64,000 nt of DNA. Source: Armatimonadota bacterium. GTDB lineage: Bacteria > Armatimonadota > HRBIN16. Under the pieces are notes generated by a model. The model ran no database searches, was not told where the DNA came from, and saw only the letters and a list, made by a program, of their open reading frames with translations. Numbering within the stretch: position 1 is the first letter of the stretch; each line of letters begins with the position of its first letter. Below, piece by piece: positions 25,640 to 51,540 of this stretch. Both the position numbers and the translations under genes were made by a program. The stretch lies in the NCBI GenBank assembly GCA_026003175.1, contig BPGT01000003.1, positions 268,278 through 332,277 on the forward strand. The letters run 5' to 3'.

Positions 25640-25824
25640 GAAGGTATTCGAGAATTGTTGAGAAGTTGGTTGTAGCGCAAGGAGAGAGGCGTTCTTGCTA
25701 TCCCTGCCTTACCTCACCCCCGTCCCCTCTCCTACGAGGAGAGGGGCGTTCCCCCTTCCCTTGCAGGGAAGGGGGCAAGGGGGTTAGGTTATCTATCCAT
25801 TCAACCAGCAATTTCGAACACCCT
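25640..25824 (+). mobile_element. MITE copy A (~185 bp), flanked by 9-bp direct repeat AGCAACAGG (25631-25639 / 25825-25833)
   Basis: Near-identical to 51347-51532 and to the reverse complement of 48995-49180. Right TIR TTCGAACACCCTC, left TIR degenerate (GAAGGTATTCGAG). Internal palindromes CCCCTCTCCTACGAGGAGAGGGG and CCCTTCCCTTGCAGGGAAGGG. Intergenic. Confidence 0.75.
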
Positions 25825-25884
25825 CAGCAACAGGACTTCGCCCTGCCGCCGTCGAAAGGTTATGGTCACGGAGGGGGGTAGGCA

Positions 25885-26769
25885 ATGGAAGGTTTCTTCG
25901 CAGCATTGATGAACCAGATATTCTGGCTCTTCCTGATATATTCGTTCCTTGCGCCGCTGGTGAAGCAAAGGATGTTAGAGGCGGCGCGGCTACAGGCGAT
26001 TGCTGCCTTCGAGAGGAAACGGGGCACGCGCGTGATCGCCATGATACATCGGCAGGAGGCGCTGGCGCTGTTTGGTATCCCTCTTTTCCGTTACATCAAC
26101 ATCGAGGACGCCGAAGAGCTGCTGCGCGCAGTGCGGATGACGCCAGCGGACCGTCCGATTGACCTCATCCTGCACACGCCAGGCGGACTGGTGCTTGCCA
26201 GCGAGCAGATTGCGCGAGCCTTGTGTAACCATCCAGCGAAGGTGACCGTGTTCGTACCGCACTACGCGATGTCCGGGGGCACCCTCATCGCTCTCGCCGC
26301 GGATGAGATTGTGATGGACCCTCACGCGGTGTTGGGACCGGTGGACCCGCAGCTGGGCGAGTACCCCGCTGCGTCCATCCTACGAGCCGTGGAGATGAAA
26401 CGTCCCGATCGCGTGGATGATCGCACGCTGATATTAGCCGATGTCGCTCGCAAAGCGATATGGCAGGTACGCCGCCTGCTGGAGGAGATTCTCTCCTCGA
26501 AAATGCCTGAAGAGAAGGCAAAGCAGCTGGCAGCGTTGCTCAGCGAAGGCACATGGACACACGACTATCCCATCTGCGCAGAGGAGGCGAAGGCGATGGG
26601 TCTGCCGGTGAGTACCGACTTCCCCGAAGAGATTCACCGGCTGATGGCGCTGTATCCCCAGCCTGTGCAACGCAAAGCGAGTGTGGACTACGTGCCTATT
26701 CCTTACGAACCGGATACTCGTCCGCAACCGGCGCCTCGCCGACGCACGCGAGGAAGTCGGAGTGTGTAG
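25885..26769 (+). CDS. membrane-anchored ClpP-fold serine protease (SDH/NfeD-like family)
   Basis: 294-aa ORF; GGAGGGGGG before ATG. N-terminal TM (IFWLFLIYSFLAPLV). Motif DLILHTPGG typical of SDH/NfeD Clp-fold proteinases. Confidence 0.7.
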   Translation: MEGFFAALMNQIFWLFLIYSFLAPLVKQRMLEAARLQAIAAFERKRGTRVIAMIHRQEALALFGIPLFRYINIEDAEELLRAVRMTPADRPIDLILHTPGGLVLASEQIARALCNHPAKVTVFVPHYAMSGGTLIALAADEIVMDPHAVLGPVDPQLGEYPAASILRAVEMKRPDRVDDRTLILADVARKAIWQVRRLLEEILSSKMPEEKAKQLAALLSEGTWTHDYPICAEEAKAMGLPVSTDFPEEIHRLMALYPQPVQRKASVDYVPIPYEPDTRPQPAPRRRTRGSRSV

Positions 26770-26774
26770 CGTTT

Positions 26775-28016
26775 TCACGGTGAGAGGGATTTTCGTAACG
26801 GGCGAGGCTCTGGCTCCTTCGTCACACGCAAACCCGCCCGGTGCATCCCTCGCTGTATCTCTGGACGACGCATAAACAGCTTCCACACGCCTCCGGTACG
26901 ATAGTCCTCTATCGCCAGCAATGCCATACCCAAGTCGATACCGATAACGTCCTTATCCCACCAGTCGCGATCCACATTAAAAGCGTTGCTGAAGCCGTAT
27001 CGCCCCCAGATTCTGGATCTGTAGCGGTCGTACATGGTTTGCATCGCACGGAGGGATTCCTTTGGGGTGAAAATGATGGAACCTATCGGCGCGGTGGGAG
27101 CTACCGTGCCATCAGGCTTGTCCCACATGATTATCGCTGCGTAACCACGATAGCCATCGGGTCCGTCGCAGGCGGTCAACCCCCACACATCCTCATCGAA
27201 AGTTTTGAATCTCTCTTTGTTGTCGATGCAGAACTGCCGACTGGCAAGCGTAGCGTTGACGGAGCTCACCCAGTAGTCCCAGCCCAGTCGGTCGCGGCGC
27301 CCGCGCAGGTCAATATAATGATGCGACATCTGATGCATAAACAACGGTCCGCCTGTCAGGTGCTCATATTTGCCCCGGTAGTTCACCACCGGACGTTCCC
27401 AGGCATCCCACATTCTTTCGGGCAGATTCTGGTGCGGCGCACCCAGAGCGAGGACGTACAGGATAATGTGCTCGCAGTAGGAATGCCAGCGGGTTTTCAG
27501 GAAGCCTTCTTCAGGGCGCCACCCGTGTGAAAGCAGCATCTCGTTGGGTTTGCTGCCGCCATCCGTGCGCATCACGTCGAAGTCTACACGGCGGTAAAAA
27601 CGCTCTACCAGTCGGGCGACCTCTCCTTTGAAAAACTCTGCCGCCAGCAGCGCGCCCGCCAGAAACAGGGCAGTGTCGATAGTGGACACTTCGCAGTTCC
27701 ACACGCGCTTGCCGCTGCGCCAGTCTACGAAGTGGTATAACCAGCCATGGAAGTGGAACATCTCATCCAGCACGAAGCGCAGGGTTTTGAGGGTCCTTTG
27801 TTCAGCCTGCTTGCGCTCCAGCCAGCCCCGCTGGACCGCTACCACGTTCGCTGCCAATGCATACCCTGTGCTGGCAACGCTGGCGATGGTGTAGTCGTCG
27901 GAAGTGAAGTTGCTGGCGCGGTCTTTGGTCAGACCGGTTTCAGGGTGAGACTCGTTCCAGAAAAATCGCCATGCGCGTTCCTGTACTTCGTTCATCAGCT
28001 GCTGGGTATCCATCAT
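26775..28016 (-). CDS. glucoamylase-like six-hairpin glycosidase (putative GH144/DUF3131-type)
   Basis: 413-aa ORF; GAGGAGAA before ATGATG. Sequence pattern resembles putative-glucoamylase (alpha/alpha)6 domain proteins. Family-level call moderate. Confidence 0.75.
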   Translation of the reverse strand: MMDTQQLMNEVQERAWRFFWNESHPETGLTKDRASNFTSDDYTIASVASTGYALAANVVAVQRGWLERKQAEQRTLKTLRFVLDEMFHFHGWLYHFVDWRSGKRVWNCEVSTIDTALFLAGALLAAEFFKGEVARLVERFYRRVDFDVMRTDGGSKPNEMLLSHGWRPEEGFLKTRWHSYCEHIILYVLALGAPHQNLPERMWDAWERPVVNYRGKYEHLTGGPLFMHQMSHHYIDLRGRRDRLGWDYWVSSVNATLASRQFCIDNKERFKTFDEDVWGLTACDGPDGYRGYAAIIMWDKPDGTVAPTAPIGSIIFTPKESLRAMQTMYDRYRSRIWGRYGFSNAFNVDRDWWDKDVIGIDLGMALLAIEDYRTGGVWKLFMRRPEIQRGMHRAGLRVTKEPEPRPLRKSLSP

Positions 28017-28136
28017 TTCTCCTCTGTGCTTACGGTGTGCGGTTTTTCTTGCCCGTCCATCTATACCTGAAAGTTGCGGCGACAGGCAAACGGAACCACT
28101 CTACTCATATCCGAATCATCACGAGTACTCCCATTT

Positions 28137-28173
28137 GGCACATAAAAGAATGGGCAGGGAAACCCTGCCCATT
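28137..28173 (-). terminator. rho-independent terminator (GAATGGGCAGGG-ttt-CCCTGCCCATTC followed by TTTTAT on minus strand)
   Basis: Perfect 12-bp inverted repeat 28147-28173, 14 nt past the stop of the DUF1559 gene 28187-29026. U-rich tract follows on the minus strand. Confidence 0.65.
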
Positions 28174-28186
28174 CGAGGAGGGTGCT

Positions 28187-29026
28187 TTAGCGCACCTGGC
28201 CGTTAGCCACAGCCTCGCGGAACGTGCGGCACATGGTATCCAGCCAGGTCAGGTCCATGCCGCCGATAATAACGTTACCGTTGGCATCCTTCGCGTAGCC
28301 CCACTTGTTGGTGCCGTCGGGGTTGTCATGGGTGCAGACGGCATCCCATGTGGTCCACTTGGCGTGACCGTCCAGATAGGTAAGGTTCACGGCGCGGTCG
28401 CTGCCTCGGTGGCGTGCTCCAAAGTTGGAGCCAGCGGCACCCCAGTTAGGATCGAACGCCATCCATGGACCATAGTCGGGCCATACGTCTTTGTGCTCGC
28501 CAACGATAAGCGTATTGGCGGGGTACGGGAAGTTGACCTCTGCATAGTTGAAGCCTGCCCACCACTCTCCAGAGCCGACGGGACTGCCCGACTTGAAGAA
28601 CGCATGGTACAGGAAGTAGCTGCGAACGGTCTTCTGTACGGTGGGCGGATAGACTTCGCAATCTACCGTGCCGTTGCCGTCTAAGTCGCCGCTGGTGTCG
28701 TCCAGGGTGCGGTTCAGCGGGTTGGTGGGGCATCTGAACAGATCCCAGTTCTTGATGTAAGGGAATAGCATGTGCTTCCAGTTTGCGTCACAGCCCTGTG
28801 CACACCAGGCGCCCGGGCAGGTTCGACGCATAGGGAGTACCTCGTCGTAGTCCTGCGAGTACATGCGGATGGCAAGTCCAATCTGCTTCATGTTGGATAG
28901 ACAGGACGAAACCCTCGCCGATTCTCGCGCCTGCGAGAACACGGGGAACAGGATCGCCGCCAGGATCGCGATAATCGCGATGACGACGAGCAGTTCGATG
29001 AGCGTAAAAGCTCGGTTGCGATACAT
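28187..29026 (-). CDS. DUF1559 domain protein with prepilin-type N-terminal cleavage/methylation domain (paralog 1)
   Basis: [30 protein letters not shown] (class III signal/pseudopilin N-terminus) and C-terminal YLDGHAKW (H-x9-DG-type DUF1559 motif). AAGGAGG before ATG. Confidence 0.9.
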
Positions 29027-29082
29027 TGGATGTTCGACCTCCTTTTGGATGTAGTGTTAGATGTGTTACCTGTGCTGTTTCC

Positions 29083-29307
29083 CTAACGCCCCGGCGCGCC
29101 TGGTGTTATTGGCGCAGCCACGGGAGTATTGGTTTTGCCGGGTATCACGCCCGGATACATAGGCGGACCGGCGCCCGCCTCCTTTGCCGTCCGCGTGCCG
29201 CGGCTAAAGCTGCCGGTCATCGCCATATAACCCACGATAAGCACGATGACCACCACCACGATAACCGCAATCGCCACGGGCGGACTGACCTCTTTCTTCA
29301 TGTTCAT
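29083..29307 (-). CDS. small membrane protein (74 aa)
   Basis: GGTGAGGTGA before ATG. One hydrophobic helix AIAVIVVVVIVLIVGYMAM. Short, moderate support. Confidence 0.45.
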   Translation of the reverse strand: MNMKKEVSPPVAIAVIVVVVIVLIVGYMAMTGSFSRGTRTAKEAGAGPPMYPGVIPGKTNTPVAAPITPGAPGR

Positions 29308-29385
29308 AGCCTGTCACCTCACCATGTTACATTAACCGATTCAGTGTATTTGAAGCGAAAAGCCCTCCCGTGTACAGATGGCTGC

Positions 29386-30423
29386 TCAGGAACCCCCGCA
29401 AGAGCGGCGAACATCCAGAGTCGGCTCAAACACTCTGGCGACTCGACGAGGGCGTTCGCCGTCTATCAGCCGAGCAAGCGTTCTGACTCCCTCGCGCGCC
29501 ATCTCGTAGATGGGCTGGCGCACGCTGGTTAGAGGTGGGTCGGTGTGGTTGCATACCTCTGTGGAGTCGTAGCCGACCACAGCCACATCCTCCGGGATGC
29601 GCAACCCCAGCTCGCGCATGACCTGCATGGCGCGAATAGCTACATCGTCGCTCCATGCGAAGATGGCTGTCGGCCGGTTGGGAGAGCGCATTATCTCCAC
29701 CAGCGGCGTGGCATCTGAGAGTGGACCGGGCATTTCGATAACCCACCCCTCTTCCGGCTCGATGCCCGCTTCGCGCATCGCCTGCACGTAACCGTGCCAT
29801 CGATCCAGCGCGGGCGCGGAGTGCGAGCTTCCACGCAAATGCACAATCGCGCGATGCCCCAAATCCAGCAGGTGCTTTGTGGCAATATAGCCGCCCTTCA
29901 CGTTGTCGCAATCCACGTAGTACACATCGGGGCGGCGTGCGCGGGTGAAAATGAGCACATGCGGGAAGCCACTATCCGCCAGAATGTCCGACAAGGGGTC
30001 ATCGATGTCGCGCAGGAGCAATGCGCCGTCGATGCGCCCGTCCATCACCGCGTTCGCTTCGTGTTCCGCATCGTCGCCGTGCGCTCCGGTGTACATCATC
30101 AGGTCATACTGCTGTTCAATCGCTTCGTGCGACGCGCCATGCAGCAATTCCAGAATAAATCCCGACCACCCGCCGAAAATCGCTGCGTACTGCATCACCA
30201 CCCCAATAGTGTGCGTGCGCTGCTGGGTCAGCGCACGGGCGACGGCGTTCGGGCGATAACCTAGTTCCCGTATCACCTCCCAGATGCGCCGGCGCGTCTC
30301 GTCGCTGATGCGAACCTTGCCCTCGCGTCCGTTAATCACGTAGGATACGGTGACTTTGGACACGCCTGCTTTCTGCGCCACATCGGCTATGGTCACTCGC
30401 TCGCGTCGCATGGTTCCACTCAT
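29386..30423 (-). CDS. LacI family transcriptional regulator
   Basis: N-terminal HTH VTIADVAQKAGVSKVTVSYVING plus periplasmic-binding-protein-like sugar-binding core. Start 30423 or ATG 30411. Confidence 0.9.
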   Translation of the reverse strand: MSGTMRRERVTIADVAQKAGVSKVTVSYVINGREGKVRISDETRRRIWEVIRELGYRPNAVARALTQQRTHTIGVVMQYAAIFGGWSGFILELLHGASHEAIEQQYDLMMYTGAHGDDAEHEANAVMDGRIDGALLLRDIDDPLSDILADSGFPHVLIFTRARRPDVYYVDCDNVKGGYIATKHLLDLGHRAIVHLRGSSHSAPALDRWHGYVQAMREAGIEPEEGWVIEMPGPLSDATPLVEIMRSPNRPTAIFAWSDDVAIRAMQVMRELGLRIPEDVAVVGYDSTEVCNHTDPPLTSVRQPIYEMAREGVRTLARLIDGERPRRVARVFEPTLDVRRSCGGS

Positions 30424-30436
30424 TAATCGGTTAATG
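30423..30436. promoter_or_regulatory. candidate LacI-type operator half-palindrome TTAATCGGTTAATG overlapping lacI start codon
   Basis: Near-palindrome TTAATC|GGTTAA with central CG. A related copy TTACCGGTTAATG lies at 30591-30603. Confidence 0.3.
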
Positions 30437-30590
30437 CACTCTTAGTATAGCACCGCTCGCTGAGTTTGTCAAGAGGATAGACCCGATTTCCACAAAATTT
30501 TCGCGAAAAATCTGCAAAATTGCTTGACTTTTCTGCAATCTTGTGCTACTGTTTAAAGCAGAGGAGCGGGGATAGAGGTCAGGTTCGTTT

Positions 30591-30603
30591 TACCGGTTAA
30601 TGT
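30591..30603. promoter_or_regulatory. second candidate operator TTACCGGTTAATG upstream of PEP-CTERM gene
   Basis: Shares CGGTTAATG with 30423-30436. Lies between a promoter-like TTGACT-N17-TACTGT (30526-30554) and ATG 30670. Confidence 0.3.
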
Positions 30604-30669
30604 GCGAGAGCGGCCCTTGCATTCCCCATTCGGAAAATAACTATCCTTAACCAGAAAGGAGGATACACC

Positions 30670-31443
30670 ATGAAAAAACTTCTGCTGTTGACCGTGCTGA
30701 GTCTGGGGCTGATTACCTGGGCAAATGCACAGGTCACCAATGTCGTCATTCTGGACCGAGTGTTCAATGACGACACCGACTCCATTTCCAGCCACATCAA
30801 GGCGCTGCCTGCGGTGCTGCTCTCCGACAACAAGGTGGACGGCGACGGCGCCGCGCCGGACTGGGCGAATCGGCATGCGTGGTTTGTGTCCAGCGATGGC
30901 ATGAACTCCCTGCAGATTCCGCTGAGCCAATCGTGGAAGCTGGAGTTTGACCTCACGCTCATCGGCAGCCCGGTTGCTCCGCGCAAGGAGGCGGGGTTCC
31001 TGATCCGCATCGGCATGCCCTGGGGCTACTCGGAGGGGCAGTTCATCGTTAACACCGATGCTCATGAGGTAGTCGCTTTCGGCTGGCCCTTCCCCTTCTA
31101 CAGCTTCGGCGCTAGCCACGGGCTGTCGTACAACTCCGGTGACACCATCCATCTGGGCGTGCAGTTCTTCCAGGACCCGAGCGATAACCTGTACAAAGTG
31201 ATTTACTCGGCGAACGGTATCGACAGCCCCGCCCTGGCACTGGACTACGTGGACCCGAACCACCCGTGGATTACGCCGGGCGGCTACTTGCAGGTGCAGG
31301 TGATGGCGGGAAATCCCCGAAACGGCGGTGCTGCGCTGTTCAATAACATCCTGTGGAACGGCGCTCCGGTACCTGAACCTGCCAGCGTTGCGGTGCTCGG
31401 GCTGGGAGTGGTAGCGCTGGCTTTGCGCAGGCAGAAGAAGTAG
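30670..31443 (+). CDS. PEP-CTERM sorting domain-containing secreted protein
   Basis: AAAGGAGG before ATG. Signal peptide MKKLLLLTVLSLGLITWANA. C-terminal VPEPASVAVLGLGVVALALRRQKK (PEP motif + TM + basic tail). Confidence 0.88.
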   Translation: MKKLLLLTVLSLGLITWANAQVTNVVILDRVFNDDTDSISSHIKALPAVLLSDNKVDGDGAAPDWANRHAWFVSSDGMNSLQIPLSQSWKLEFDLTLIGSPVAPRKEAGFLIRIGMPWGYSEGQFIVNTDAHEVVAFGWPFPFYSFGASHGLSYNSGDTIHLGVQFFQDPSDNLYKVIYSANGIDSPALALDYVDPNHPWITPGGYLQVQVMAGNPRNGGAALFNNILWNGAPVPEPASVAVLGLGVVALALRRQKK

Positions 31444-31465
31444 TTTTTGAGCCTGTTGTTGCTTC

Positions 31466-31505
31466 GCCCCCGACGTTGTGTGTGGCGTCGGGGGCAATTT
31501 GTTTG
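31466..31505 (+). terminator. rho-independent terminator (GCCCCCGACG-ttgtgtgtgg-CGTCGGGGGC + AATTTGTTTG)
   Basis: Perfect 10-bp stem 23 nt after stop of PEP-CTERM gene, T-rich tail. Confidence 0.7.
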
Positions 31506-31522
31506 AGGAATAGGGAGTCCCT

Positions 31523-33472
31523 TCACGTCAGAAACTGGTATATCGGCACATCGAATATCTTTCCACACAGCGCCCATCCTGCCTGTGTTACGATGTCGCC
31601 CAGCGTCACCCCTACGAAGAACGCCAGACTGCGCCGGTAGCCTTTGCTCCCGCCGAAACGCTGTACCAGCACTTTCGCGCTCCACGCAATGAGGAAGGTG
31701 AGGAAGAAGGCGTTCATCGTAATCGTGTTCGCCATCACGTAGCCCACCGGGTGCAAAGGGAAGACATTCAAGCGCGCCCGCAGGCTGGCGAGCAACAGCG
31801 TGAAAACGCCTCCGGCACAAGCCGCCAGCACCCCACTCTTATCCCAGGCGACCCGCGTGCTGGCAAGAGAGTGCATCTGCTGCATCCCATACTGCACCTT
31901 CCACATTGCATAGGCGTTGCTTTTAGCGGTCGCCGCGCCGAGTGCGTAGAAATTGGTGAGGCTACTCCACCATCCTACCGCCAGCGCGGTGAGCGTGCCT
32001 ATCGCTACCCAAGCCAGCACCGTGCGCCAGCGCAAGCCGACCGAATCAGCGATTTTGAGCCCTTCCATCAGGTAGGGCAGCGACTGTGCACGGATGTCTA
32101 CATGCACGAGGTCAAAATAGCCGCCCGCCACTACCGCGCTCTCCGGAAGGTTCTGCGTGCCCAGTACTGCGTTCGCCACCCGATGAGGCGTCCATGTGGC
32201 GGGAGCGAACGTCCACTGCCCACCCGCCTCAGCGCGGATGCGTGCCCCGCTCAGCACGTATGTCACATATACCCCGATAATCATCAGCGCGAACAGGGGT
32301 GGGATGCCGGTCGCCATCATCATCAGCGCGCACAGCAAAGCACACCCCAGTGCCAGCCAACCTAACAGACGCACGGTGCGCAACTCGTCGGGCGTCAGGT
32401 GGCGAAGGAGGCTCTTCCAGTGGTAACGCGCTCCCCAACCCACCATGAGCGCAAAGGCAATCCACGCGCCTGCCGCCTGCTCCTCTTTATAGGGGAAGCG
32501 TGCTGCGGCGGTATCGCCTACCTCTAACCCGAACGCCGCGCCCACCACGTACAACAACCGCGTGACCAACCAGAAGAACCAGCAGCTGAAACTGATACTG
32601 CTCGGCACGAAATACGCCAGCCCCACCGCCATCGGGTAGATGCCCAGCGGGAAATCGGGGAAAGCGTTCCACGGCGGAGACTGAAAAAGGGGGATTTTGA
32701 CATAGGTCGCCTTCAACTGTATCGCCGGGATAGCGGGATACCAGTCGTGCAGTACCAGCAGACTCTGCATCACTGCAGGAATGGCAAAGCCCAACCAGAA
32801 CAGCGGTCGTCGCAAGAGGTCGTCCTGCGGGGCGGTCAGCTGCAGGGGCAGTACGGTGATGGGAAAAGTTAGCCGTTCCTGTCGTATCCAGATGCGATGC
32901 AGCACCGCCGCCAACCCTATCCAGATGCCTGTGAGCAACACCAGGTATAGGCTCCAGAAGAGAATAGGGGTTATCCACGCTTGCCAAGGCACACTGCTTT
33001 GCCCACGATACAGAGCGCGGATGGCTTCGGGGTCATGCAGGATGGGCAGGTGAGCGAGATAGGGCAGGTAACGGTTCCACTGAGGTTGTGTCTGCGCGAA
33101 GTAAGGGAAGAAGCCCATGCCTGGCATCAAGAAACGCAACCCGCCAAAGCCGACGATGGGGATGGTGGCAGTGAGCACAATATAGCCCATTAGCAGCTCC
33201 TCGCGGGTGAACGGCAGCCATCGGCGTAGCAGGCGCACGAACAGCAGGTACAGCGCAGTAGGCATCATCAGCGAGTAGCAAATAAGATAGATACTGCGGG
33301 CGATTTCGCTGTCCGCCACCCACCACACCATCACCGCCTGCGTCAGCAGGATGAACAGAGCAAGGCGTGGACGGATACCCGCAATCGTTATCCCACGCAG
33401 CTGCTCGACAACTCGCCCGGTACGCACCGTGCTATCGGTAACGAGATGCAACGGTGTTTGCCCCCCGAACAT
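31523..33472 (-). CDS. polytopic integral membrane protein (649 aa, >12 predicted TM)
   Basis: Long ORF with repeated hydrophobic ~20-aa segments throughout. No family recognised. Last gene of the mog-moeA-membrane gene string. Confidence 0.8.
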   Translation of the reverse strand: MFGGQTPLHLVTDSTVRTGRVVEQLRGITIAGIRPRLALFILLTQAVMVWWVADSEIARSIYLICYSLMMPTALYLLFVRLLRRWLPFTREELLMGYIVLTATIPIVGFGGLRFLMPGMGFFPYFAQTQPQWNRYLPYLAHLPILHDPEAIRALYRGQSSVPWQAWITPILFWSLYLVLLTGIWIGLAAVLHRIWIRQERLTFPITVLPLQLTAPQDDLLRRPLFWLGFAIPAVMQSLLVLHDWYPAIPAIQLKATYVKIPLFQSPPWNAFPDFPLGIYPMAVGLAYFVPSSISFSCWFFWLVTRLLYVVGAAFGLEVGDTAAARFPYKEEQAAGAWIAFALMVGWGARYHWKSLLRHLTPDELRTVRLLGWLALGCALLCALMMMATGIPPLFALMIIGVYVTYVLSGARIRAEAGGQWTFAPATWTPHRVANAVLGTQNLPESAVVAGGYFDLVHVDIRAQSLPYLMEGLKIADSVGLRWRTVLAWVAIGTLTALAVGWWSSLTNFYALGAATAKSNAYAMWKVQYGMQQMHSLASTRVAWDKSGVLAACAGGVFTLLLASLRARLNVFPLHPVGYVMANTITMNAFFLTFLIAWSAKVLVQRFGGSKGYRRSLAFFVGVTLGDIVTQAGWALCGKIFDVPIYQFLT

Positions 33473-33518
33473 GATGGGGAAAGATTGGATGGAAGGGGAG
33501 GAGACTCCTGCTCAACCC

Positions 33519-37189: not shown

Positions 37190-37417
37190 GTTTCCAACCT
37201 GCCCGTGCTACCTGCGAACATTTTATTCGTCGCCAATCGCGCCGAAGTTGCGCACCAGCACGCCGAAGTCGAACAGGGTAACCTCCTCATCCCCGTCCAG
37301 GTCGGCATCCGGGTTCCAGTTGCTGTCACCGGGCACACTGCCAAAGGCGGCAACCAGCGCGCCGAAGTCGAACAGCGTGACCTCGTTATCGCCGTCGATG
37401 TCGCCGTTGATAAGGTC
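37190..37417. repeat. direct repeat 1 (dockerin module + 3' flank), partner at 38573-38800
   Basis: ~190 nt of coding sequence with about 5 mismatches by eye, plus similar 3' UTR. Each copy followed (lower coordinate) by a GC hairpin (CACGGGCAGG-tttccaa-CCTGCCCGTG at 37189-37215). Confidence 0.8.
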
Positions 37418-38572: not shown

Positions 38573-38800
38573 ATGCCCCTGACACCTTACCTACTGGCGA
38601 ACGTCTTATTCGTCGCCAATCGCACCGAAGTTGCGCACCAGCACGCCGAAATCGAACAGGGTAACCTCCTCATCCCCGTCCAAGTCGGCATCCGGGTTCC
38701 AGTTGCTGTCACCGGGCACACTGCCAAAGGCGGCAACCAGCTCGCCGAAGTCGAACAGCGTGACCTCGTTGTCGCCGTCGATGTCGCCGTTGATGAGACT
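38573..38800. repeat. direct repeat 2 (dockerin module + 3' flank), partner at 37190-37417
   Basis: See partner. Antisense ORF pairs 37248-37640 and 38631-38867 arise from this repeat. Confidence 0.8.
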
Positions 38801-39943: not shown

Positions 39944-40170
39944 GTTAGTTCCCTCCCTTTCTCTTAAGCAATGGGACTGCGAACGATACTACATACTCTA
40001 GGATAGAGAATTCCCCCCAAAAAGTCAACAGGTTGCGATCGGAACTGGGCAAAGATTCTTGCTATGAGCACACAACACCTGCGTCCAAATCGCTCCGCGC
40101 AAAGCATCGCCTGCGAGCGGATATAGCGGGGGAAATAGTGCAGGAGTTTGTTCAAACTCCAGTCAAATGG

Positions 40171-40199
40171 TTGCCAAATGCAGCATCAGGCACTATAAT
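40171..40199 (+). promoter_or_regulatory. sigma-70-like promoter TTGCCA-N17-TATAAT
   Basis: Near-consensus -35/-10 with 17-nt spacer in the 477-nt intergenic region. Would give a ~215-nt leader before ATG 40421. Confidence 0.5.
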
Positions 40200-40420
40200 T
40201 TATCTACGCTAAGCGGATGCGCACAGAAGAATCAAACACATTGGGGTTGCTCTTCACCCAACGGCGCTGCCTGTCCGCGGCTGAAGCCGCGCCCTCTCAA
40301 GCGAAGCCAGCCTGCGGAGGCTGGGTTTCGTCTGCAAGGGAAAGGCTTTGCCGTGTGTGTACTGCGTTGAAATTTTCGTGCGTGTTCGCTTAACAACTTA
40401 TCAGAAGTGGAGGGTGCCTG

Positions 40421-41299: not shown

Positions 41300-41335
41300 A
41301 GGTAAGTTCCCTCACATCAGTCGGAAAGCAGCAAG

Positions 41336-44464: not shown

Positions 44465-44485
44465 ATCTTCAGAGAGGTGAACGCA

Positions 44486-45397: not shown

Positions 45398-45403
45398 AAA
45401 CTG

Positions 45404-45865
45404 ATGGGAGGTCAACAGTTGCAATTCACCGCTCAAATCGTTCGGCAAGGGAGCAGGACGTTTCTCGTTCTGCCAGAGGAGGTAGTAGCAAGATGGGGCA
45501 AGAAACCCCACCACTACGTGGCAGGAACCATCCACAATCGTTCCATACGTGGGCGCACCGAGATCCAAGCGGCACAGTATATCCTGCCTCTGGGTCCAAC
45601 ATGGCTTCAGGATAACGACATCCAGGCAGGAATGATTGTGGAGTGCGTGCTCTCCCTGGAAAGTCCGGTATTCGAAGAGCTCGCCCGCGACATCGCAAGC
45701 GCGCTTGAGGCAGAGCCGCAAGCAAAGGCGTTTTTCGAGGAGATAGCGCCGTTCTACCGCAAAAACTACCTGCGGTGGATAGAAGAAGCCAAACGCCCTG
45801 AAACGCGCGCCAGGCGTATCGCCGAGGTGGTGCAGCTGCTGAAAGAGGGGCGCAGGCAGAGGTAG
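45404..45865 (+). CDS. DUF1905 + YdeI/OmpD-associated family protein
   Basis: N-terminus QFTAQIVRQGSRTFLVLPEEV (DUF1905-like). C-terminus ..FYRKNYLRWIEEAKRPETRARRI (YdeI-like). 6 nt after previous gene. Confidence 0.8.
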   Translation: MGGQQLQFTAQIVRQGSRTFLVLPEEVVARWGKKPHHYVAGTIHNRSIRGRTEIQAAQYILPLGPTWLQDNDIQAGMIVECVLSLESPVFEELARDIASALEAEPQAKAFFEEIAPFYRKNYLRWIEEAKRPETRARRIAEVVQLLKEGRRQR

Positions 45866-45870
45866 TTTTT

Positions 45871-46185
45871 TTACCTCTGCTTCCTGTCCCTCTGCCATAA
45901 ATGATAGGCTACCAGAGCCTGGAACAGGGTAAACAGTACCAGCATGATGCTATTGAGAACGTACAGCGAGATGAAGAAACCCGTGAGGCGACGGATAAGC
46001 ACAATCAGCACCAGCCCGAACAGCAGATTGGCGATGTACACCAGCATCCAGCAGCCGATAAACTCCAGCGCCCCCTGTATCGCTTGCGCAATGTCTTCGC
46101 GCTGGATACGCCATACCTGCCTGGCGTAAAGGTAACCGGCGAAGGAGCTCAACAGTATCAGCAGGGGGACGTACAGTTTATCCAT
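45871..46185 (-). CDS. small membrane protein (3 TM)
   Basis: ATG 46185 (MDKLYVPLLILLSSFAGYLYA...) one nt after stop of DUF218 gene; GGGGGAGTGAG upstream. Confidence 0.6.
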   Translation of the reverse strand: MDKLYVPLLILLSSFAGYLYARQVWRIQREDIAQAIQGALEFIGCWMLVYIANLLFGLVLIVLIRRLTGFFISLYVLNSIMLVLFTLFQALVAYHLWQRDRKQR

Positions 46186-46186
46186 C

Positions 46187-46864
46187 TCACTCCCCCGCGC
46201 GGTAGAGCCATCGTGCCAACGCTTCACGCAGTGTGTAGTGCATCAGTTCCAATCGCCCCTCTGTGCCTTCGGTATCGACTGGTAAGTCGTCCGCGGTGAC
46301 AGGGAACACTTTCAGACCGTATCGTTCGAAACGCGGCACCGCACGAGGCAGGTGAAGCGAGGTGCTCACCAGCAGGATGCTTTTTGCCCCTCTCTGGCGC
46401 AGGTTCTTCGCGATGTTTTCTGCCTCCTCAGCAGTAGTCTGAGCGTGCGTTTCCATTAAGATAGCCTTTTCGGGCACCCGCAGCTGGCGGGCGAGCGCAG
46501 CGCGTACTTCCGCCTCTACCGGAGACCCCTCGTACGACGTGCCCGAGAAGACGATAAGCGGCGCAAGCCCGCGGTGATACAGCACGATACCCTGTATGGC
46601 TCGACGCATGGACGATTCGCTTAGTGTACCATCTCGATATACACTGGCTCCCAGTACCACAATCGCATCAGCAGGCTGTATTTGGGAAGAGATGGCCAGA
46701 GCGCGTGCGAGCATATTGGGTAAGGGCGTATACACGCTGAGCAGTACCCCCAGCACGCCCAGCAAGCCGAGCAGACGCAGCAACTTTTGCAGGCGGGTGT
46801 TTCGAGTCATCAGTGTGAACCCTTGTTCCACGCCGGTGCAAGAGTTTCCTGCTACGGTAGCCAT
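46187..46864 (-). CDS. DUF218 (YdcF/ElyC/SanA-like) domain protein
   Basis: N-terminal TM then DAIVVLGA...LIVFSGT motifs of DUF218. GAGGAGGG before ATG 46864. Confidence 0.8.
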   Translation of the reverse strand: MATVAGNSCTGVEQGFTLMTRNTRLQKLLRLLGLLGVLGVLLSVYTPLPNMLARALAISSQIQPADAIVVLGASVYRDGTLSESSMRRAIQGIVLYHRGLAPLIVFSGTSYEGSPVEAEVRAALARQLRVPEKAILMETHAQTTAEEAENIAKNLRQRGAKSILLVSTSLHLPRAVPRFERYGLKVFPVTADDLPVDTEGTEGRLELMHYTLREALARWLYRAGE

Positions 46865-47565
46865 ATCGTGCCTGTGCCCTCCTCACCCAGTACTTCACCG
46901 CCGTACATCCATGCTCTCGCTGCCAGCCACGCGCAGAAGAGCGCGTCCACTCTATCTTCAAACTGCTTCCACTCGGAGTTGGTGTCGGCAATCACACTCA
47001 GCCAGTTTGGTAAACACAACTTCGGGTTTGAGAGGCGGCCGAGCAGCTCAATATACTGCCGCATCTGCTCGCGACGGTATGTGAGGCTCCTGCCCGGTCG
47101 CGCCTTGTATTCCACAATGCGGGGCAAACCGAATAGCTTTACCATCGCCGCATGAGGGTGTACTTCGAAGGCAACACGACAGGGTTCCCGTTGCGGAGGG
47201 GCAGGCATCACCTGCACGTGCAGGCGTTCAGCCAGCAGAGTGCAGAGCCGCTCGCCGCGAGGAGGGTCACCCAGTAGTCGCCGGTTCGCCGGGTGGCAAG
47301 CTGCATGGAAACGGGCAAACCGCCTGCGCATTTCAACCTCCACCGGACGCTCTCCGCTAAGGTTAGGAACCACTAGAGGTGCATCAATGGCGATAACCAG
47401 CGTACCGCCGTCATCCTGCTCAGCGATCGCCTGGCAAATCTGCTCGTCGGTAACCAACAGCTGCGCAGGCGTGACCTCGTGCAAGGCTTCTGCCTGCCAG
47501 TGCAGTATCGCCAGCCCGGAGGGTTTCCGGTTGCCCCAGGCAAGATCTATTCCGACAAACATCAT
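46852..47565 (-). CDS. DUF429 domain protein (predicted RNase H-like nuclease)
   Basis: MMFVGIDLAWG... N-terminus characteristic of DUF429. Confidence 0.8.
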   Translation of the reverse strand: MMFVGIDLAWGNRKPSGLAILHWQAEALHEVTPAQLLVTDEQICQAIAEQDDGGTLVIAIDAPLVVPNLSGERPVEVEMRRRFARFHAACHPANRRLLGDPPRGERLCTLLAERLHVQVMPAPPQREPCRVAFEVHPHAAMVKLFGLPRIVEYKARPGRSLTYRREQMRQYIELLGRLSNPKLCLPNWLSVIADTNSEWKQFEDRVDALFCAWLAARAWMYGGEVLGEEGTGTIWLP

Positions 47566-48791
47566 CTACGCTCTCTAATATACCGAATCACCACTGTGCC
47601 GATTGCCCAGTACACCATTGCCAGCACCATCAGCGCACGATAGCCCGCCCCCATCTGCACCTGCTTATTGATGGCGTATGCAATCGGTCCGGCGATTAAA
47701 GGAGCAATCACCTGCGGCAGGGTGTCCGCAATGCCCCACACACCCATGTACTTCGCCGGAGCCTCCTCTGACAGCAGGTTGCACGCTAACGCCCAGTCCA
47801 CCGCCTGAAACACGCCGAATCCTGCTCCGAAGATGCCTACCGCGATGTAAACCACTCGTAGGTCGGTGGCAAAGAGAAAACCTATGCCCGCCACCAAGCA
47901 GATGAGGCAGGAGAGAGCCAGTATCAGCCGTTTGCTGTAGCGGTCGGCGAGCTTGCCTGCGGGAATCGTGCCTAAAATGCCGGTGACGGTGGAGAGTATC
48001 ATGAGATTGGTGATAAGCTGGAACGCCTCCTCGCGATAGCCTAATGTATCGCGCAGGTAGTATAGCAGGCAGAAGTTGACCGTATAAATACCCATCATGA
48101 TGGCGAGACGGCTTACCAGCAGCCACACAAAGCTCGGGTAGGGTTTCAGCGGCACACGGTAGCTGGAAGTTATCGCCTCCCACAGGGTGGGCGCGTTGCC
48201 GGTGTAAGGCTCTTCGCGGATGAGCCACACGTTCAGCAGCATGAAAGCGTTGAGGAAGAGAGCAAACAGCACCATCAGCCAGAATAACCCACGCTCCGAG
48301 CCCAGCAACAGACTGGCGGCGAAGGGACCGCCGATGCGTCCTAACAGGGTGCAGATGCCCATCCACGCCGAAGCGGTTCCGTGATACTGCCAGGGGATGC
48401 GGTCGGGAATCAGAGCCTGGTAGGGTCCGTTAGCCACGTTCAGAAAGAACTGGATAATGATGTAAACACCCATGAGCGTCCATGCGGTGCGTGCAGCGGG
48501 GAAAGCAAACAGCGCGATGGTCGTGAGCACGGTACCCACAATCAGGTAAGGACGTCTGCGCCCCATGCGGTGGCGGCTACGGTCGCTGATTGCGCCGAAC
48601 AGGATTTGCGTGGCAGAAGCTACGAACGCGCCGATGCTGGTTACTATCGCCAACACGCGGTCCTTTTCCTGTGAGCCAACCAGCTGCTCCACACGGTCGG
48701 GTAGAACCAATATCAGCACCGCGCCCCAGAAAAAGGAGAGCGCAAACCAGAAGAGGCTGATACCTAAATAGTCACGCAGGGTGGGTTTCAT
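47562..48791 (-). CDS. MFS transporter (sugar/glycoside type)
   Basis: 12-TM pattern. ORF extends to TTG at 48950; preferred ATG 48791 (MKPTLRDYLGISLFWF...). 4-nt overlap with DUF429 gene. Confidence 0.85.
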   Translation of the reverse strand: MKPTLRDYLGISLFWFALSFFWGAVLILVLPDRVEQLVGSQEKDRVLAIVTSIGAFVASATQILFGAISDRSRHRMGRRRPYLIVGTVLTTIALFAFPAARTAWTLMGVYIIIQFFLNVANGPYQALIPDRIPWQYHGTASAWMGICTLLGRIGGPFAASLLLGSERGLFWLMVLFALFLNAFMLLNVWLIREEPYTGNAPTLWEAITSSYRVPLKPYPSFVWLLVSRLAIMMGIYTVNFCLLYYLRDTLGYREEAFQLITNLMILSTVTGILGTIPAGKLADRYSKRLILALSCLICLVAGIGFLFATDLRVVYIAVGIFGAGFGVFQAVDWALACNLLSEEAPAKYMGVWGIADTLPQVIAPLIAGPIAYAINKQVQMGAGYRALMVLAMVYWAIGTVVIRYIRERR

Positions 48792-48994
48792 TGCCCTATG
48801 CAATTCGGTGTAAGAGGGCAACATTCCTTGCTGCTTCAGATGCATCGCATCCAACGGGCCGCCACGAGGGTTGCCCCTATGTTCGGGGACACTGCGAAGC
48901 ATGCGGCTGAAGCAGTCTCCTGCGGTGATTGGGTGTTTGCCAAAAAGCAATCCTGCAAAATCTTCCTGCTGTTTTACATATCAGCGTTTACCCT

Positions 48995-49180
48995 GAGGGT
49001 GTTCGAAATTGCTGGTTGAATGGATAGATAACCTAACCCCCTTGCCCCCTTCCCTGCAAGGGAAGGGGGAACGCCCCTCTCCTCGTAGGAGAGGGGACGG
49101 GGGTGAGGTAAGGCAGGGATAGCAAGAACGCCTCTCTCCTTGCGCTACAACCAACTTCTCAACAATTCTCGAACACCCTC
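48995..49180 (-). mobile_element. MITE copy B (186 bp, inverted relative to A/C), flanked by 9-bp direct repeat GTTTACCCT (48986-48994 / 49181-49189)
   Basis: Perfect 13-bp TIRs GAGGGTGTTCGA(A/G) / (C/T)TCGAACACCCTC. Interior near-identical to rc of copy A. Intergenic between MFS and GntR-type regulator genes. Confidence 0.8.
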
Positions 49181-49188
49181 GTTTACCC

Positions 49189-49217
49189 TTGACATATCTG
49201 GCGGGTTGATATAGAAT
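49189..49217 (+). promoter_or_regulatory. sigma-70-like promoter TTGACA-N17-TAGAAT, -35 box partly formed by the MITE target-site duplication
   Basis: Immediately right of MITE B; upstream of regulator gene 49246. Confidence 0.5.
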
Positions 49218-49245
49218 GAATGTGAATGTTATAGAACAAATCGTG

Positions 49246-50341
49246 ATGACGACGATGCCTGTATCCGAACCGCGCTACCGGCGTATCCAGAAGCATATCG
49301 AACAGCTCATCGCCCAGCGCAGGGTGTGTGAAGGTGAGCGCATCCCCAGCGAGCGCGAAATCGCCCGCCAGTTCGGCGTGAGCCAGATGACGGTGAACCG
49401 TGCCATTCAGGAGCTGGTGCGGGAAGGGGTGCTGGTGCGCCGAGTGGGTTCGGGCACGTACGTGCGACGCAGGCAGCCTTCTGTCCGCGAATCAACCCGC
49501 GCCACCGTGGTGATGGTACCCGCCCTTCGCCGACCACCTGGAAGAGGATACTTACCTGCGCTGGCCCTTCCACGCGTTCCGCGATAGAGCTATCAAGGAC
49601 GACTACGCGCTGGTGGTGGAACCTGCCTCCCACGAAGGCTACGAAGAGGTCGTGCAGCGCCACCCGGCTGCTGGGTTCATCTTCCTGATACCCGACGAGG
49701 AGGGTTACGATACTCTGCATCGCCTGTTTGTAAGGGGTGTTCCGTTCGTGGTGCTTGGAGCATCGTGGAAGGGTGCGCCCTTCGCCTGCGTGGATAGCGA
49801 CAATATCGGCGGCGCACGCATGGCGATGACATACCTGTTGCGGCTGGGACACAAACGCATTGCCTACGTGAACGGCAAAGATTCCGCTACCAACTGCCGC
49901 GACAGGCTACAGGGCTACCTGCAGGCGATGGAGGAACAGCGAATCCAGGTACAAGATGAGTGGATAGTGCGTCCGCACTCCAACTGGAAATTGAGCGAGG
50001 AGGCAAGGCGCCAGCTGACATCTTTGCTGCTACGTCGGGATGCGGTAACCGCGCTTTTCTGCGCGGGATACTACCTTACGCTGGATGTGCTGGGCTTAAT
50101 ACGCACCCTGCGCCTGCGCGTGCCTGAGGATGTGAGCATTATCAGTTTCGACGACCCCTCTTCAGCGGCGCACTTGCAGCCACCTCTTACTGTCGTGCGG
50201 CAACCGCTTTACACCATGGGCGAACGGGCGGTAGGCAGGCTGCTGAATCTGATACGCGCGCCGGCGAACGAGCCGGGCGGCGTGGAGTACTTGCCGGTGG
50301 AACTGGTCGTACGCAACTCGTGCGAACGCCTGCTGGAGTAA
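49246..50341 (+). CDS. GntR-type HTH + LacI/PBP-like sugar-binding domain transcriptional regulator; frame change at CCCGCCC (49519-49525)
   Basis: ORF 49216-49587 has GntR HTH (..RIPSEREIARQFGVSQMTVNRAIQELVREGVLVRRVGSGTYV). The continuation (PFADHLEEDTYLRWPFHAFRDRAIKDDYALVVEPASHEGYEE...) is in the frame of ORF 49613-50341, which carries a LacI-type ligand-binding domain. Start codon uncertain (49216/49246/49255). Confidence 0.75.
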
Positions 50342-50464
50342 CGTTTCCCTGTGTGTGGCGGGGAAGGCGTCTTTACAGTGAAGTGTTACATAACAAACAG
50401 GCGTTCTGCACGATTGCTATAACACTGCAAGAAACAACAGACAAACATGAGGGAGGTTCCAATC

Positions 50465-51256
50465 ATGAAGCGCAACGGTTTTACGCTCATCGAACTGCTA
50501 GTCGTGATAGCGATTATCGCTATCCTAGCGGCGATTCTGTTCCCGGTGTTCGCCCAGGCACGGGAGAAGGCGCGCATGACCGGCTGCCTTTCCAACACGA
50601 AGCAGATAGGTCTCGCACACAGCATGTACATTCAGGACTACGATGAGACCTTTGTGTGGAACCCCTGGCCCGGCGGACCCGGCGGCGCACCCTGGTGCGG
50701 CAACCCCGACCAGCCTACCCTGATATGGACGGGAGCGCTGATGCCGTACATCAAGAACAAGGGGCTGTTCCAGTGCCCGAGCATCAGCGCGGGTACTACT
50801 GAAAGCGCATGTCCCTGGTGCCCACTGGCGGGTAACTGTCGGTATTACATGGCGAACTACGTTGAGGCGAACGGGCTGTTGCCGGACTACTGTATTACCT
50901 ACGGTTTCAACGAGTACATCATTGGCAACCAGTGTTCGCCTCGCACGCTTGGGGCAATCGGCTCGCCGGCGTCGGTCGCTATCTTCGCCGATGCCATCGC
51001 CATGATGTGGGCGTCGTTCTACGGCATCACCGTCAACGGCGAAGGTCCCTTCTGGTGCGTTTCCGACCCCACCAGCGGCTGGTTGTACGGGCGTCCGGTG
51101 CACCATGTTACCGGTCCAGCCGCGAGACCGGTAGGAGCGATTAACTTCGTGTACGCTGACGGTCACGCCAAATCCGACAGAAACTTCTGGGCGGACGACT
51201 CCTACCCGGTGTACTGTCGTGGCGGTTATCGCGGCGCGCTGCTCTGGAAAGACTGA
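50465..51256 (+). CDS. DUF1559 domain protein with prepilin-type N-terminal methylation domain (paralog 2)
   Basis: GAGGGAGG 8 nt before ATG 50465 ([37 protein letters not shown]...). C-terminal VYADGHAK motif. Confidence 0.9.
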
Positions 51257-51346
51257 GAAAGCAAGACACGCAGAGGGCGAGTCTCCCACTCGATCTATTT
51301 GCACAAAAAGATTTTTTCGGCTTACCGGGAGGTTCGCCCTCCAGCT

Positions 51347-51532
51347 GAGGGTGTTCGAGAATTGTTGAGAAGTTGGTTGTAGCGCAAGGAGAGAGGCGTT
51401 CTTGCTATCCCTGCCTTACCTCGCCCCCGTCCCCTCTCCTACGAGGAGAGGGGCGTTCCCCCTTCCCTTGCAGGGAAGGGGGCAAGGGGGTTAGGTTATC
51501 TATCCATTCAACCAGCAATTTCGAACACCCTC
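51347..51532 (+). mobile_element. MITE copy C (186 bp), flanked by 9-bp direct repeat CCTCCAGCT (51338-51346 / 51533-51541)
   Basis: Perfect TIRs GAGGGTGTTCGAG / TTCGAACACCCTC; one interior mismatch to copy A. Intergenic between DUF1559 and PEP-CTERM genes. Confidence 0.8.
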
Positions 51533-51540
51533 CCTCCAGC

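Follow-up and report, generated by a model that had tools for sequence, protein, structure and literature searches.

Three near-identical repeats in a 64-kb stretch of DNA (the window) from an Armatimonadota genome are very probably copies of a non-autonomous MITE, which is presumably moved in trans by an insertion sequence (IS) with the same terminal inverted repeats (TIRs) and is targeted to one position of promoters, i.e., between the first and the second base of the -35 hexamer (T^TGACA). In all three copies the final base of the target-site duplication (TSD) opens a TTGACA, a good -10 hexamer follows 17–18 nt further on, and the promoter points away from the element (Table 1). A sequence-only reading of the window had described the anatomy of the elements correctly; it had missed the -35 hexamer of the outward-reading promoter which adjoins every copy.

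MITE copies and adjacent promoters

The copies are nearly the same in sequence (98–100% identity), as had been noted before. Compared with copy 3, copy 2 has one mismatch (99.5% identity) and copy 1 has three (98.4%), two of them in its left TIR, GAAGGTATTCGA. The end of copy 1 was previously given as 25824 and is off by one; the correct position is 25825. Inverted repeats were found at the ends as expected from the earlier description, with 12 perfect bases, GAGGGTGTTCGA, and 17/18 matches when one indel is allowed (GAGGGTGTTCGAGAATTG / GAGGGTGTTCGA-AATTG). Each copy is bordered by its own perfect 9-bp TSD, again in agreement with that description, and the flanking sequences of the three copies are unrelated. 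The elements are without coding capacity, since lists of open reading frames contained only spurious overlaps with them. Their location is indeed intergenic: copy 1 lies between a GH10 gene (-) and a gene for an SDH-type protease (+), copy 2 between an MFS gene (-) and a gene for a GntR-type regulator (+), and copy 3 between the genes for a DUF1559 protein (+) and a PEP-CTERM protein (+).

All promoters were called by consensus match, i.e., they are predicted. For copy 1, the -35 hexamer starts on the minus strand with a T at base 25631, the edge of the TSD; for copies 2 and 3 the first T of TTGACA is the last base of the TSD (49189 and 51541, respectively). A separate promoter scan detected promoters with 11/12 matches exactly at all three TSDs; in the 3-kb stretch which carries copies 2 and 3, the promoters abutting the TSDs were the sole promoter-like sites.

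Table 1. Elements, target-site duplications and predicted promoters in the window
Feature	Position	Strand	Remarks
MITE copy 1	25640..25825	+	186 bp; left TIR 25640-25657 with 2 substitutions; right TIR 25809-25825
MITE copy 2	48995..49180	-	186 bp; inverted with respect to copies 1 and 3
MITE copy 3	51347..51532	+	186 bp; TIRs 51347-51364 and 51516-51532; hairpins 51431-51453 and 51460-51480
TSD of copy 1	25631..25639 (left), 25826..25834 (right)		AGCAACAGG; perfect, 9 bp
TSD of copy 2	48986..48994 and 49181..49189		GTTTACCCT; perfect, 9 bp
TSD of copy 3	51338..51346 and 51533..51541		CCTCCAGCT; perfect, 9 bp
Promoter at copy 1, TTGACA-N18-TATACT	25602..25631	-	sigma70-type; toward GH10 gene (24245-25549, -)
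Promoter at copy 2, TTGACA-N17-TAGAAT	49189..49217	+	toward GntR-type regulator gene (from about 49216)
Promoter at copy 3, TTGACA-N17-GATAAT	51541..51569	+	toward PEP-CTERM protein gene (51625-52539)
Degenerate MITE of a sister family	63009..63169	+	right TIR 63156-63169 exact; left end GAGGGGATTCAG diverged; left boundary approximate
Promoter at degenerate element, TTGACT-N18-TAAAAT	63178..63207	+	begins at the ninth base beyond the element; same offset as at the three copies

The window contains a fourth exact right TIR, which had been overlooked. It marks the end of a degenerate sister-family element, for which no TSD was found; the interior has a GC-rich motif in common with a 340-bp MITE at another locus (L104).

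Both interior palindromes reported previously are present in the MITE, and the single-stranded element folds far better than shuffled sequences (z = -7.9). The accompanying suggestion of a structured RNA is unsupported: only 1 of 54 predicted pairs is compensatory (covariation term +1.43), the hairpins are deleted in family members of 161–173 nt, and no Rfam family matched the MITE at gathering thresholds.

Empty site and copies elsewhere

The site of copy 1 is empty in relatives, in two of which the adjacent protease is 97% identical (L121/L122) and in one 92% (L124). The empty allele reads ...GTCAAGCGACAGG|ACTT...; the target is present once, the element is lacking, and the -35 and -10 hexamers are those of the window; thus, the promoter at copy 1 predates the insertion. 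At the site of copy 2, contigs of relatives either differ in synteny or stop short, about 130 bp upstream of the MFS gene.

In hot-spring metagenomes, the window MITE occupies about 14 additional, independent insertion sites. Constant flanks would have pointed to segmental duplication; the copies elsewhere show variable flanks and variable 9-bp direct repeats. Counting the three copies of the window, the MITE family is represented at 17 independent sites, of which 8 have perfect 9-bp TSDs, 3 have repeats with 7–8 of 9 matches, and 3 have imperfect repeats of 10–11 nt, which still end at T^TGAC.

Most matches of a 16-mer scan for the TIR in genome contigs arose by chance in unrelated phyla. Of the 120 stretches, about 20 came from Armatimonadota, and the interior of the window MITE occurred in one of them only (L016). 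A pair of TIRs spanning 1.2 kb (L036, 2966-4200) was rejected as a chance match, since its left "TIR" falls within a glycosyltransferase gene, and the same applies to pattern matches in L130 and L154, which are unrelated sequence. The region of about 1 kb between two MITE copies in L136, L138 and L144 was considered as a candidate transposase gene and is a DUF433/DUF5615 toxin-antitoxin pair.

Putative partner insertion sequence

The search for an IS with matching TIRs and 9-bp TSDs, which the sequence-only reading had proposed, was successful in related genomes. Metagenome-assembled genomes (MAGs) of Armatimonadota/Fimbriimonadales contain an autonomous IS with the TIR GAGGGTGTTCGAAAA of the MITE, 9-bp TSDs and a DDE_Tnp_1 transposase. 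Its copies in L156–L160 have exact or near-exact MITE TIRs, a size of 1014–1098 bp and a single open reading frame; in L157 two copies are arranged in tandem. TSDs of 9 bp were seen in L158 (CAAAAGGGT, followed by TGACA; upstream of rpoB), L159 (AGGGTTGAA) and L160 (CCCCCCCCT, followed by TGACA), and the copy in L156 is situated upstream of rpsL-rpsG-fusA. Full-length IS copies show the same T^TGAC junction as the MITE upstream of rpoB, rpsL and efp.

The transposase consists of about 300–330 amino acids and matches PF01609 (DDE_Tnp_1) with E values of 3e-12 to 4e-4, whereby 5 of 7 proteins scored above the gathering score. Residues D123, D202, E260 and K267 are invariant; the D, D, E residues and a motif R-(3)-E-(6)-K are conserved. 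The nearest named transposase is that of ISAae1 of Aquifex, which is annotated as IS5-like (33% identity, E 3e-35). Among NCBIfam models the IS5 model NF033579 matched best, with 25–40 bits and hence under its cut-off of 140, which ISAae1 itself does not reach either (97 bits); the IS4 model NF033592 gave 17–40 bits (cut-off 115, not passed), the scores for IS4_1 being about equal to those for IS5_2.

As had been stated earlier, there is no transposase gene in the window: tblastn detected no homologue within the 64 kb (best E 0.46). A scan of viral contigs with the transposase alignment gave no match. A degraded IS and a MITE of the window type are located on one contig (L139/L143), on which all IS copies seen are degraded; positions 4999-5936 of L143 were rejected as an intact IS copy on account of two in-frame stops. 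The sampled IS copies and the MITE have only the TIR of about 17 bp in common, and therefore the MITE did not arise from these copies simply by deletion. Mobilization of the MITE in trans by the IS transposase is an inference, as the IS is absent from the window.

Position of the insertions relative to promoters

Among 82 non-redundant element ends, TGAC was present at offset 8 in 21 cases and at offsets 7–11 in 31. With a background of 0.0031 per position, 0.25 occurrences at offset 8 would be expected by chance (p≈3e-34). Roughly 80% or more of the elements adjoin a -35-like hexamer, and neutral intergenic copies elsewhere are nearly absent. The junction is common to the MITE, the IS and ISAae1 from another phylum. 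No -35 was found near a few elements with perfect TSDs (L078, L114). A relative from Thermus (L162) possesses a 9-bp TSD, but its TIRs differ and it does not abut a -35 hexamer; the habit is therefore not universal in the wider clade.

Several elements are without TSD and have outward promoters on both sides, at a distance of 7–11 nt (L054, L104, L003, L131, L156). They call for secondary events, such as adjacent insertions followed by deletion or recombination, unless they are chimeras produced by assembly at repeats. In the full-text literature, as far as it was covered (incompletely), no published account of such targeting of promoter -35 regions by any bacterial transposon was found.

Proposed mechanism

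The three repeats very probably represent non-autonomous MITE copies in the genome of a Fimbriimonadales-like member of the Armatimonadota from a hot spring. The DDE transposase of the IS of 1.0–1.1 kb, which has the same TIR, would mobilize the MITE in trans by binding to both TIRs and making a staggered cut of 9 bp on integration, which would lead to the 9-bp duplication. The choice of target is very probably not random. One of the cuts is placed between bases 1 and 2 of a sigma70-type -35 hexamer; the duplicated 9 bp thus correspond to about -43 to -35 of the promoter pointing away from the element, and the core promoter is left whole, because the T is restored by the TSD. Sequence further upstream is pushed away by 195 bp, and the element end (...AATTTCGAACACCCTC) takes its place. 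Elements are found in either orientation at the target. The gain for the element is likely a safe landing site, where genes and core promoters are not broken.

Promoters could be recognized by direct readout of (C-rich)-TTGAC DNA by the transposase, for which we see about an even chance. A C is present directly upstream of TTGAC at 21 of 22 occupied sites versus, by our own count, 9 of 14 listed promoters without an element end upstream, and this strong preference resembles DNA readout.

It is also conceivable, if somewhat on the unlikely side, that the transposase is guided by the promoter-bound RNA polymerase holoenzyme or sigma region 4, and not by TTGACA itself. Complete promoters would be expected in this case, and a good -10 was present at 20 of 27 occupied TTGAC[AT] sites compared with 5 of 23 unoccupied intergenic ones (p = 5e-4), where "intergenic" refers to crude ORF-based calls and survivorship could inflate the enrichment. 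Variants of the -35 hexamer are tolerated where the -10 is good, namely TTGCAT, TTGGCT, TTGTCT, ATGACA and CTGACA, as well as TTTACA in Aquifex. Recognition is one-sided, the T^TGAC cut being anchored while the length of the repeat varies from 9 to 11, and a transposase of this size has little space for a second specific DNA-binding domain. However, survivorship alone could yield the -10 enrichment, because insertions at intergenic TTGAC sites outside of promoters may hit UTRs or operators; moreover, a few occupied TTGAC sites are without a -10 (L011, L025, right end of L156), and the preference for C speaks for the DNA itself. The broader notion is tentative and less likely than not; here a whole clade of ISAae1-like IS and their many MITE derivatives would find active sigma70 promoters via bound RNA polymerase or sigma and cut at T^TGACA. 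Recognition by means other than these two is improbable.

Targeting itself could be only apparent, if insertion were random and selection kept only those copies which abut a -35 hexamer, for example with the A/T-containing TIR as an UP-like or insulating module. In many promoters, including those for rpoB, rpsL and efp, element ends do supply a constant AATTTTCGAACACCCTC around positions -45 to -61, and some sister elements have, directly within their end, a hairpin and a T-run that could stop transcription coming from outside. This explanation is nevertheless very improbable, since the offset is exactly 8 in 21 ends, a precision seen in young copies with perfect TSDs and 98–100% identity; random insertion would leave many neutral intergenic copies elsewhere, of which there are nearly none, and the IS itself and an element of another phylum have the same junction. 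A last alternative is that the repeats are not mobile at all, being either the product of segmental duplication or a cassette with which the host regulates genes (an UP element or paired binding sites). It would suit the constant position of the repeat end with respect to promoters and the lack of a transposase in the window. The empty site and the TSDs, of which each copy has a different one between unrelated flanks, already refute it, and an IS with identical ends which encodes a DDE transposase also speaks against it.

Comparison with known systems

MITEAba12 of Acinetobacter is a short non-coding MITE with TIRs of about 16 bp and 9-bp TSDs; its partner ISAba12, a DDE IS of about 1.0 kb with a single ORF, has only the TIRs in common with it (PMC6382973). 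MITEAba12 prefers AT-rich targets without an identifiable sequence motif, carries its own outward promoters, and was seen in a composite, MITE-flanked transposon (PMC6382973). The window element is alike in being short and non-coding, in its 9-bp TSDs and in an IS partner which shares only the TIRs, and the patterns of the TIRs are similar (GGCTTTGTTGCACAAA vs GAGGGTGTTCGAAAAA, 9/16). It differs in that its junction with a host -35 hexamer is precise to the base and that no outward promoter was seen within it; host phylum and transposase clade are also different.

ISAae1 was examined in one copy, on plasmid ece1 of Aquifex aeolicus (NC_001880), with a perfect 9-bp TSD, AACCAAGGT, the final T of which starts a promoter-like TTTACA-N16-TATACT. 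Its TIR, GAGCCTGTTGAAAAAATC, matches that of the window element at 14 of 18 positions, although the phylum is a different one and the transposase has diverged.

IS903-type members of the IS5 family produce TSDs of 9 bp, and IS903 is reported to favour targets with a loose palindrome instead of a promoter element. The IS described here is similar in size (about 1.05 kb), in its one DDE_Tnp_1 transposase of about 300 amino acids, in TSD length, and in a TIR which begins with GG/GA and has a ...TGTT... core; IS5_2 is the best NCBIfam model, yet the score is far below the cut-off (39 vs 140 bits).

The yeast Ty3 element uses TFIIIB to integrate at the start sites of Pol III transcription, for which tethering was shown experimentally. 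The outcome is alike: integration is exact to the base at the border of a promoter, the gene is spared, and the element gains a safe haven; Ty3 differs as a eukaryotic LTR retrotransposon with demonstrated tethering. In the bacterial IS1202 family, insertion takes place at dif/pdif sites, 5 bp away on the XerC side (PMC10132070). The likeness consists in the fixed short distance which the IS keeps, on one side, to a functional DNA site that binds protein; the target of the IS1202 family is a recombination site and the orientation is fixed, and transposase family and TSD length differ.

Significance

In contrast to the commonplace MITEs and IS5-like elements, a DDE element whose junction is tied to the first base of the -35 hexamer is unusual. 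The elements offer a clean natural example of bacterial "safe-haven" targeting and a testable system in which to ask whether a small transposase locates promoters by reading the DNA or with the help of RNA polymerase. They are also a potential tool for the placement of cargo immediately upstream of promoters. For annotation, the conserved repeat end marks promoters in these genomes, where the upstream regions of many promoters of essential genes have been replaced. Should RNA polymerase prove to be the beacon for homing, a bacterial counterpart of Ty3/TFIIIB targeting would be at hand. In that case, dozens of Fimbriimonadales promoters would have a transposon-derived upstream region in common, among them the promoters for rpoB, rpsL, efp and tRNA genes.

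MITE copies in the window

Direct reading and alignment bore out the sequence-only reading of three near-identical copies of about 186 bp with terminal inverted repeats (TIRs; see table). The termini are GAGGGTGTTCGA...TCGAACACCCTC, with two substitutions in the left end of copy 1, and the inverted repeat reaches 17/18 nt with one indel. As had been stated, each copy is enclosed by a perfect 9-bp direct repeat, different from copy to copy, and all three are intergenic (copy 1, GH10/SDH-type protease; copy 2, MFS/GntR-type regulator; copy 3, DUF1559 protein/PEP-CTERM protein). A cognate transposase had been reported missing from the window, and the transposase described below likewise had no homologue there.

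MITE copies and predicted promoters in the window
Feature	Position	Strand	Basis
MITE copy 1	25640-25825	+	186 bp, alignment; 3 mismatches to copy 3
MITE copy 2	48995-49180	-	186 bp, alignment; 1 mismatch to copy 3
MITE copy 3	51347-51532	+	186 bp, alignment; reference for mismatch counts
Predicted promoter, copy 1	25631→25602	-	consensus scan, 11/12 positions
Predicted promoter, copy 2	49189-49217	+	consensus scan, 11/12 positions
Predicted promoter, copy 3	51541-51569	+	consensus scan, 11/12 positions
Predicted promoter by fourth end	63178-63207	+	consensus scan, 10/12 positions

Other repeats in the window are a 207-nt direct repeat (37208-37414 and 38591-38797; 95% identical, 1383 bp apart), without relation to the MITE, and the conserved 5' parts of paralogous prepilin-type N-methyl/DUF1559 genes (28841-29009, 50479-50647 and 52693-52832; 76–79% DNA identity), a family which recurs in many Fimbriimonadales loci, often neighbouring the elements.

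Evidence of mobility

Scanning genome contigs for the TIR gave mostly chance matches, plus about 20 loci in Armatimonadota/Fimbriimonadales MAGs with short elements (111–340 bp) of the same TIR and different interiors, many with 9-bp target-site duplications (TSDs). A metagenome scan with a subterminal 20-mer of the MITE yielded 27 hot-spring contigs, in which full-length copies (161–188 bp, 77–95% identical) occupy about 14 additional independent sites. With the window included, TSDs were perfect 9-bp repeats at 8 of 17 sites and matched at 7–8 of 9 positions at three more; another three sites had imperfect repeats of 10–11 nt, still ending at T^TGAC, i.e., between the first and second base of a -35 hexamer.

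The strongest evidence of mobility is an empty site for copy 1, obtained by following homologues of the neighbouring SDH-type protease to their contigs and the orthologous intergenic region. L121/L122 (protease 97% identical) and L124 (92%) have a single target copy (...GTCAAGCGACAGG|ACTT...) without the element and with the same -35/-10; thus, the predicted promoter is older than the insertion, and the element landed against it. Together with the variable flanking repeats elsewhere, this supports transposition rather than segmental duplication; the MITE reading is correct and the finding is real.

Larger arrangements were also seen. In L138 (3656-5016; also L136 and L144) two direct MITE copies surround a DUF433 + DUF5615 toxin-antitoxin pair of about 1 kb, the whole being bracketed by the 9-bp TSD TGCGGAAAT; at this site L147 (1148-1311) has a single MITE, identical to copy A and flanked by that TSD. 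The unit is either a MITE-bounded composite with a TA module, or TA-plus-MITE was added beside an existing copy. In one JGI contig (L143, 3052-5936 and 11783-14658) the MITE and a degraded IS region occur twice, 8731 bp apart, with differing IS copies, which reflects segmental duplication or else an artefact of assembly.

Probable autonomous partner

When TIR pairs separated by 0.6–3.5 kb and accompanied by matching 9-mers were sought, L139 yielded a 929-bp element. Its transposase gene is disrupted, and the stitched protein retrieved homologues in Armatimonadota MAGs (320–367 aa as called). Their loci hold elements of 1014–1098 bp with ends exactly GAGGGTGTTCGAAAA, one left end being GAGGCTG. 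The IS in L158 (TSD CAAAAGGGT, then TGACA) abuts the predicted promoter serving rpoB, that in L159 (TSD AGGGTTGAA) a predicted TTGACA-N17-TATAAT promoter of a DUF1559 gene, and that in L160 (TSD CCCCCCCCT, then TGACA) the predicted promoter of a WD40-repeat gene; L157 contains two tandem copies. MITE and sampled IS copies have only the TIR in common, the same relationship as in MITEAba12/ISAba12.

By domain these proteins are DDE_Tnp_1 transposases (PF01609), and D, D, E and R-(3)-E-(6)-K are invariant among them; the best NCBIfam model was IS5_2, far under its cut-off, with IS4_1 scoring about equally. In L156–L160 (alignment A4) the ORF lacks a stop codon within the IS. The reading frame continues across the right TIR (as ...IFRTPS... 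or ...FSNTL...) into the flank; the C-terminus is therefore set by the insertion site.

Among annotated elements, ISAae1 of Aquifex aeolicus has the closest transposase (33% identity, E 3e-35) and a similar TIR (GAGCCTGTTGAAAAAATC); in the single copy examined, the perfect 9-bp TSD ends in the T that begins a TTTACA-N16-TATACT site. The TSD is likewise 9 bp in a more distant Thermus relative, whose ends differ and do not abut a -35. In a candidate division WOR-3 MAG, an IS (L109 2359-3434 and L034 694-817) matches the TIR exactly (GAGGGTGTTCGAAAATTG), with 31% identity in the transposase; its left outward flank carries -35-like TTACAT/TTGTTA at offsets 9–10, plus a -10. Judging from these flanks, the targeting habit may reach outside Armatimonadota.

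Abutment of predicted promoters

A feature absent from the sequence-only reading is the junction itself: at all three copies the TSD ends on the T that opens a TTGACA hexamer, with a good -10 17–18 nt on, and the predicted promoters face outward, to the neighbouring gene. Copies 1 and 2 have theirs on the left and copy 3 on the right; element orientation is therefore not fixed. The consensus scan, an independent approach, gave precisely these positions (see table). In the 3-kb region with copies 2 and 3, the only two promoter-like sites are the abutted ones. At copy 2 the predicted -10 overlaps the first ATG of the 49216 ORF; hence the mRNA may lack a leader, or translation may begin further downstream. 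The gene there is split into a GntR-HTH ORF (49216-49587) and a Peripla_BP_3 ORF (49613-50341), which together look like one AraR-type regulator, perhaps owing to a frameshift, pseudogene formation or sequencing error.

The right TIR recurs exactly a fourth time, at 63156-63169, in a degenerate element from a sister family. This element contains a GC-rich motif of about 30 nt (63024-63060; …GGCGGGAGCCTCGCCCTCC…), which occurs as four tandem repeats within a 340-bp MITE of L104 (6243-6369). An outward-pointing hairpin and T-run (63133-63158; CCTCGGAGATATGTTTGAGG TTTTTT) overlaps the right TIR and could be a transcription terminator just ahead of the abutted promoter.

Among 82 non-redundant element ends, TGAC stood exactly 8 nt from the end in 21 and at offsets 7–11 in 31, against a background of 0.0031 per position in the same DNA (p = 3e-34); since elements have two ends, this amounts to most elements abutting one promoter. 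C directly preceded TTGAC in 21/22 occupied predicted promoters, compared with 9/14 without an element end upstream (our own count, entries carrying a degenerate end set aside). Of the occupied TTGAC[AT] sites, 20/27 were followed by a -10 with no more than one mismatch, vs 5/23 unoccupied ones in crudely defined intergenic DNA (Fisher p = 5e-4). Given a good -10, the -35 variants TTGCAT, TTGGCT, TTGTCT, ATGACA and CTGACA were tolerated.

Several elements without TSD (L054, L104, L003, L131 and the IS in L156, with rpsL-rpsG-fusA on one side) have outward predicted promoters on both sides at 7–11 nt. They could have arisen from neighbouring insertions at divergent promoters and a subsequent deletion, tandem and remnant arrangements being present in L030, L146 and L157; mis-joins at repeats in short-read assemblies would also account for them. 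In L036, an element has CRISPR-like repeats (GTTTTTAGCCTCCCTGTGAGGGATTGAAAC; about 3880-4000) within or beside it and meets a predicted promoter with its right end; from ORF artefacts, this promoter appears to drive tRNA genes.

Internal hairpins

The two internal palindromes are present, and the MITE single strand folds far better than shuffles (z = -7.9). The suggestion that they form structured RNAs was not supported: RNAalifold on 14 diverged copies gave 1/54 compensatory pairs and a positive covariation term, variants of 161–173 nt have lost one or other hairpin, and an Rfam search had no match; neither analysis gave evidence of a conserved RNA. The hairpins are a dispensable trait of this MITE subfamily.

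Mechanism and significance

The best explanation is that an ISAae1-like DDE transposase of IS5 type mobilises the MITE in trans. Target capture would take the upstream border of the -35 hexamer as its anchor point, and a 9-bp stagger would duplicate about -43 to -35, thereby keeping the core promoter intact; DNA upstream would be pushed 195 bp away and replaced by the element end. The transposase could recognise the promoter by reading the DNA, to which we lean slightly because of the C-rich preference. Tethering to promoter-bound RNA polymerase is the slightly less favoured alternative, in keeping with the -10 enrichment at occupied sites, the tolerated -35 variants and the one-sided anchoring. 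Selection alone cannot easily account for the abutment, since young copies with perfect TSDs have base-level precision, although it may contribute to the -10 enrichment.

As a MITE, the element fits a known class; the new part is promoter-edge targeting, common to the MITE and its IS, which makes the element deserving of experiments.
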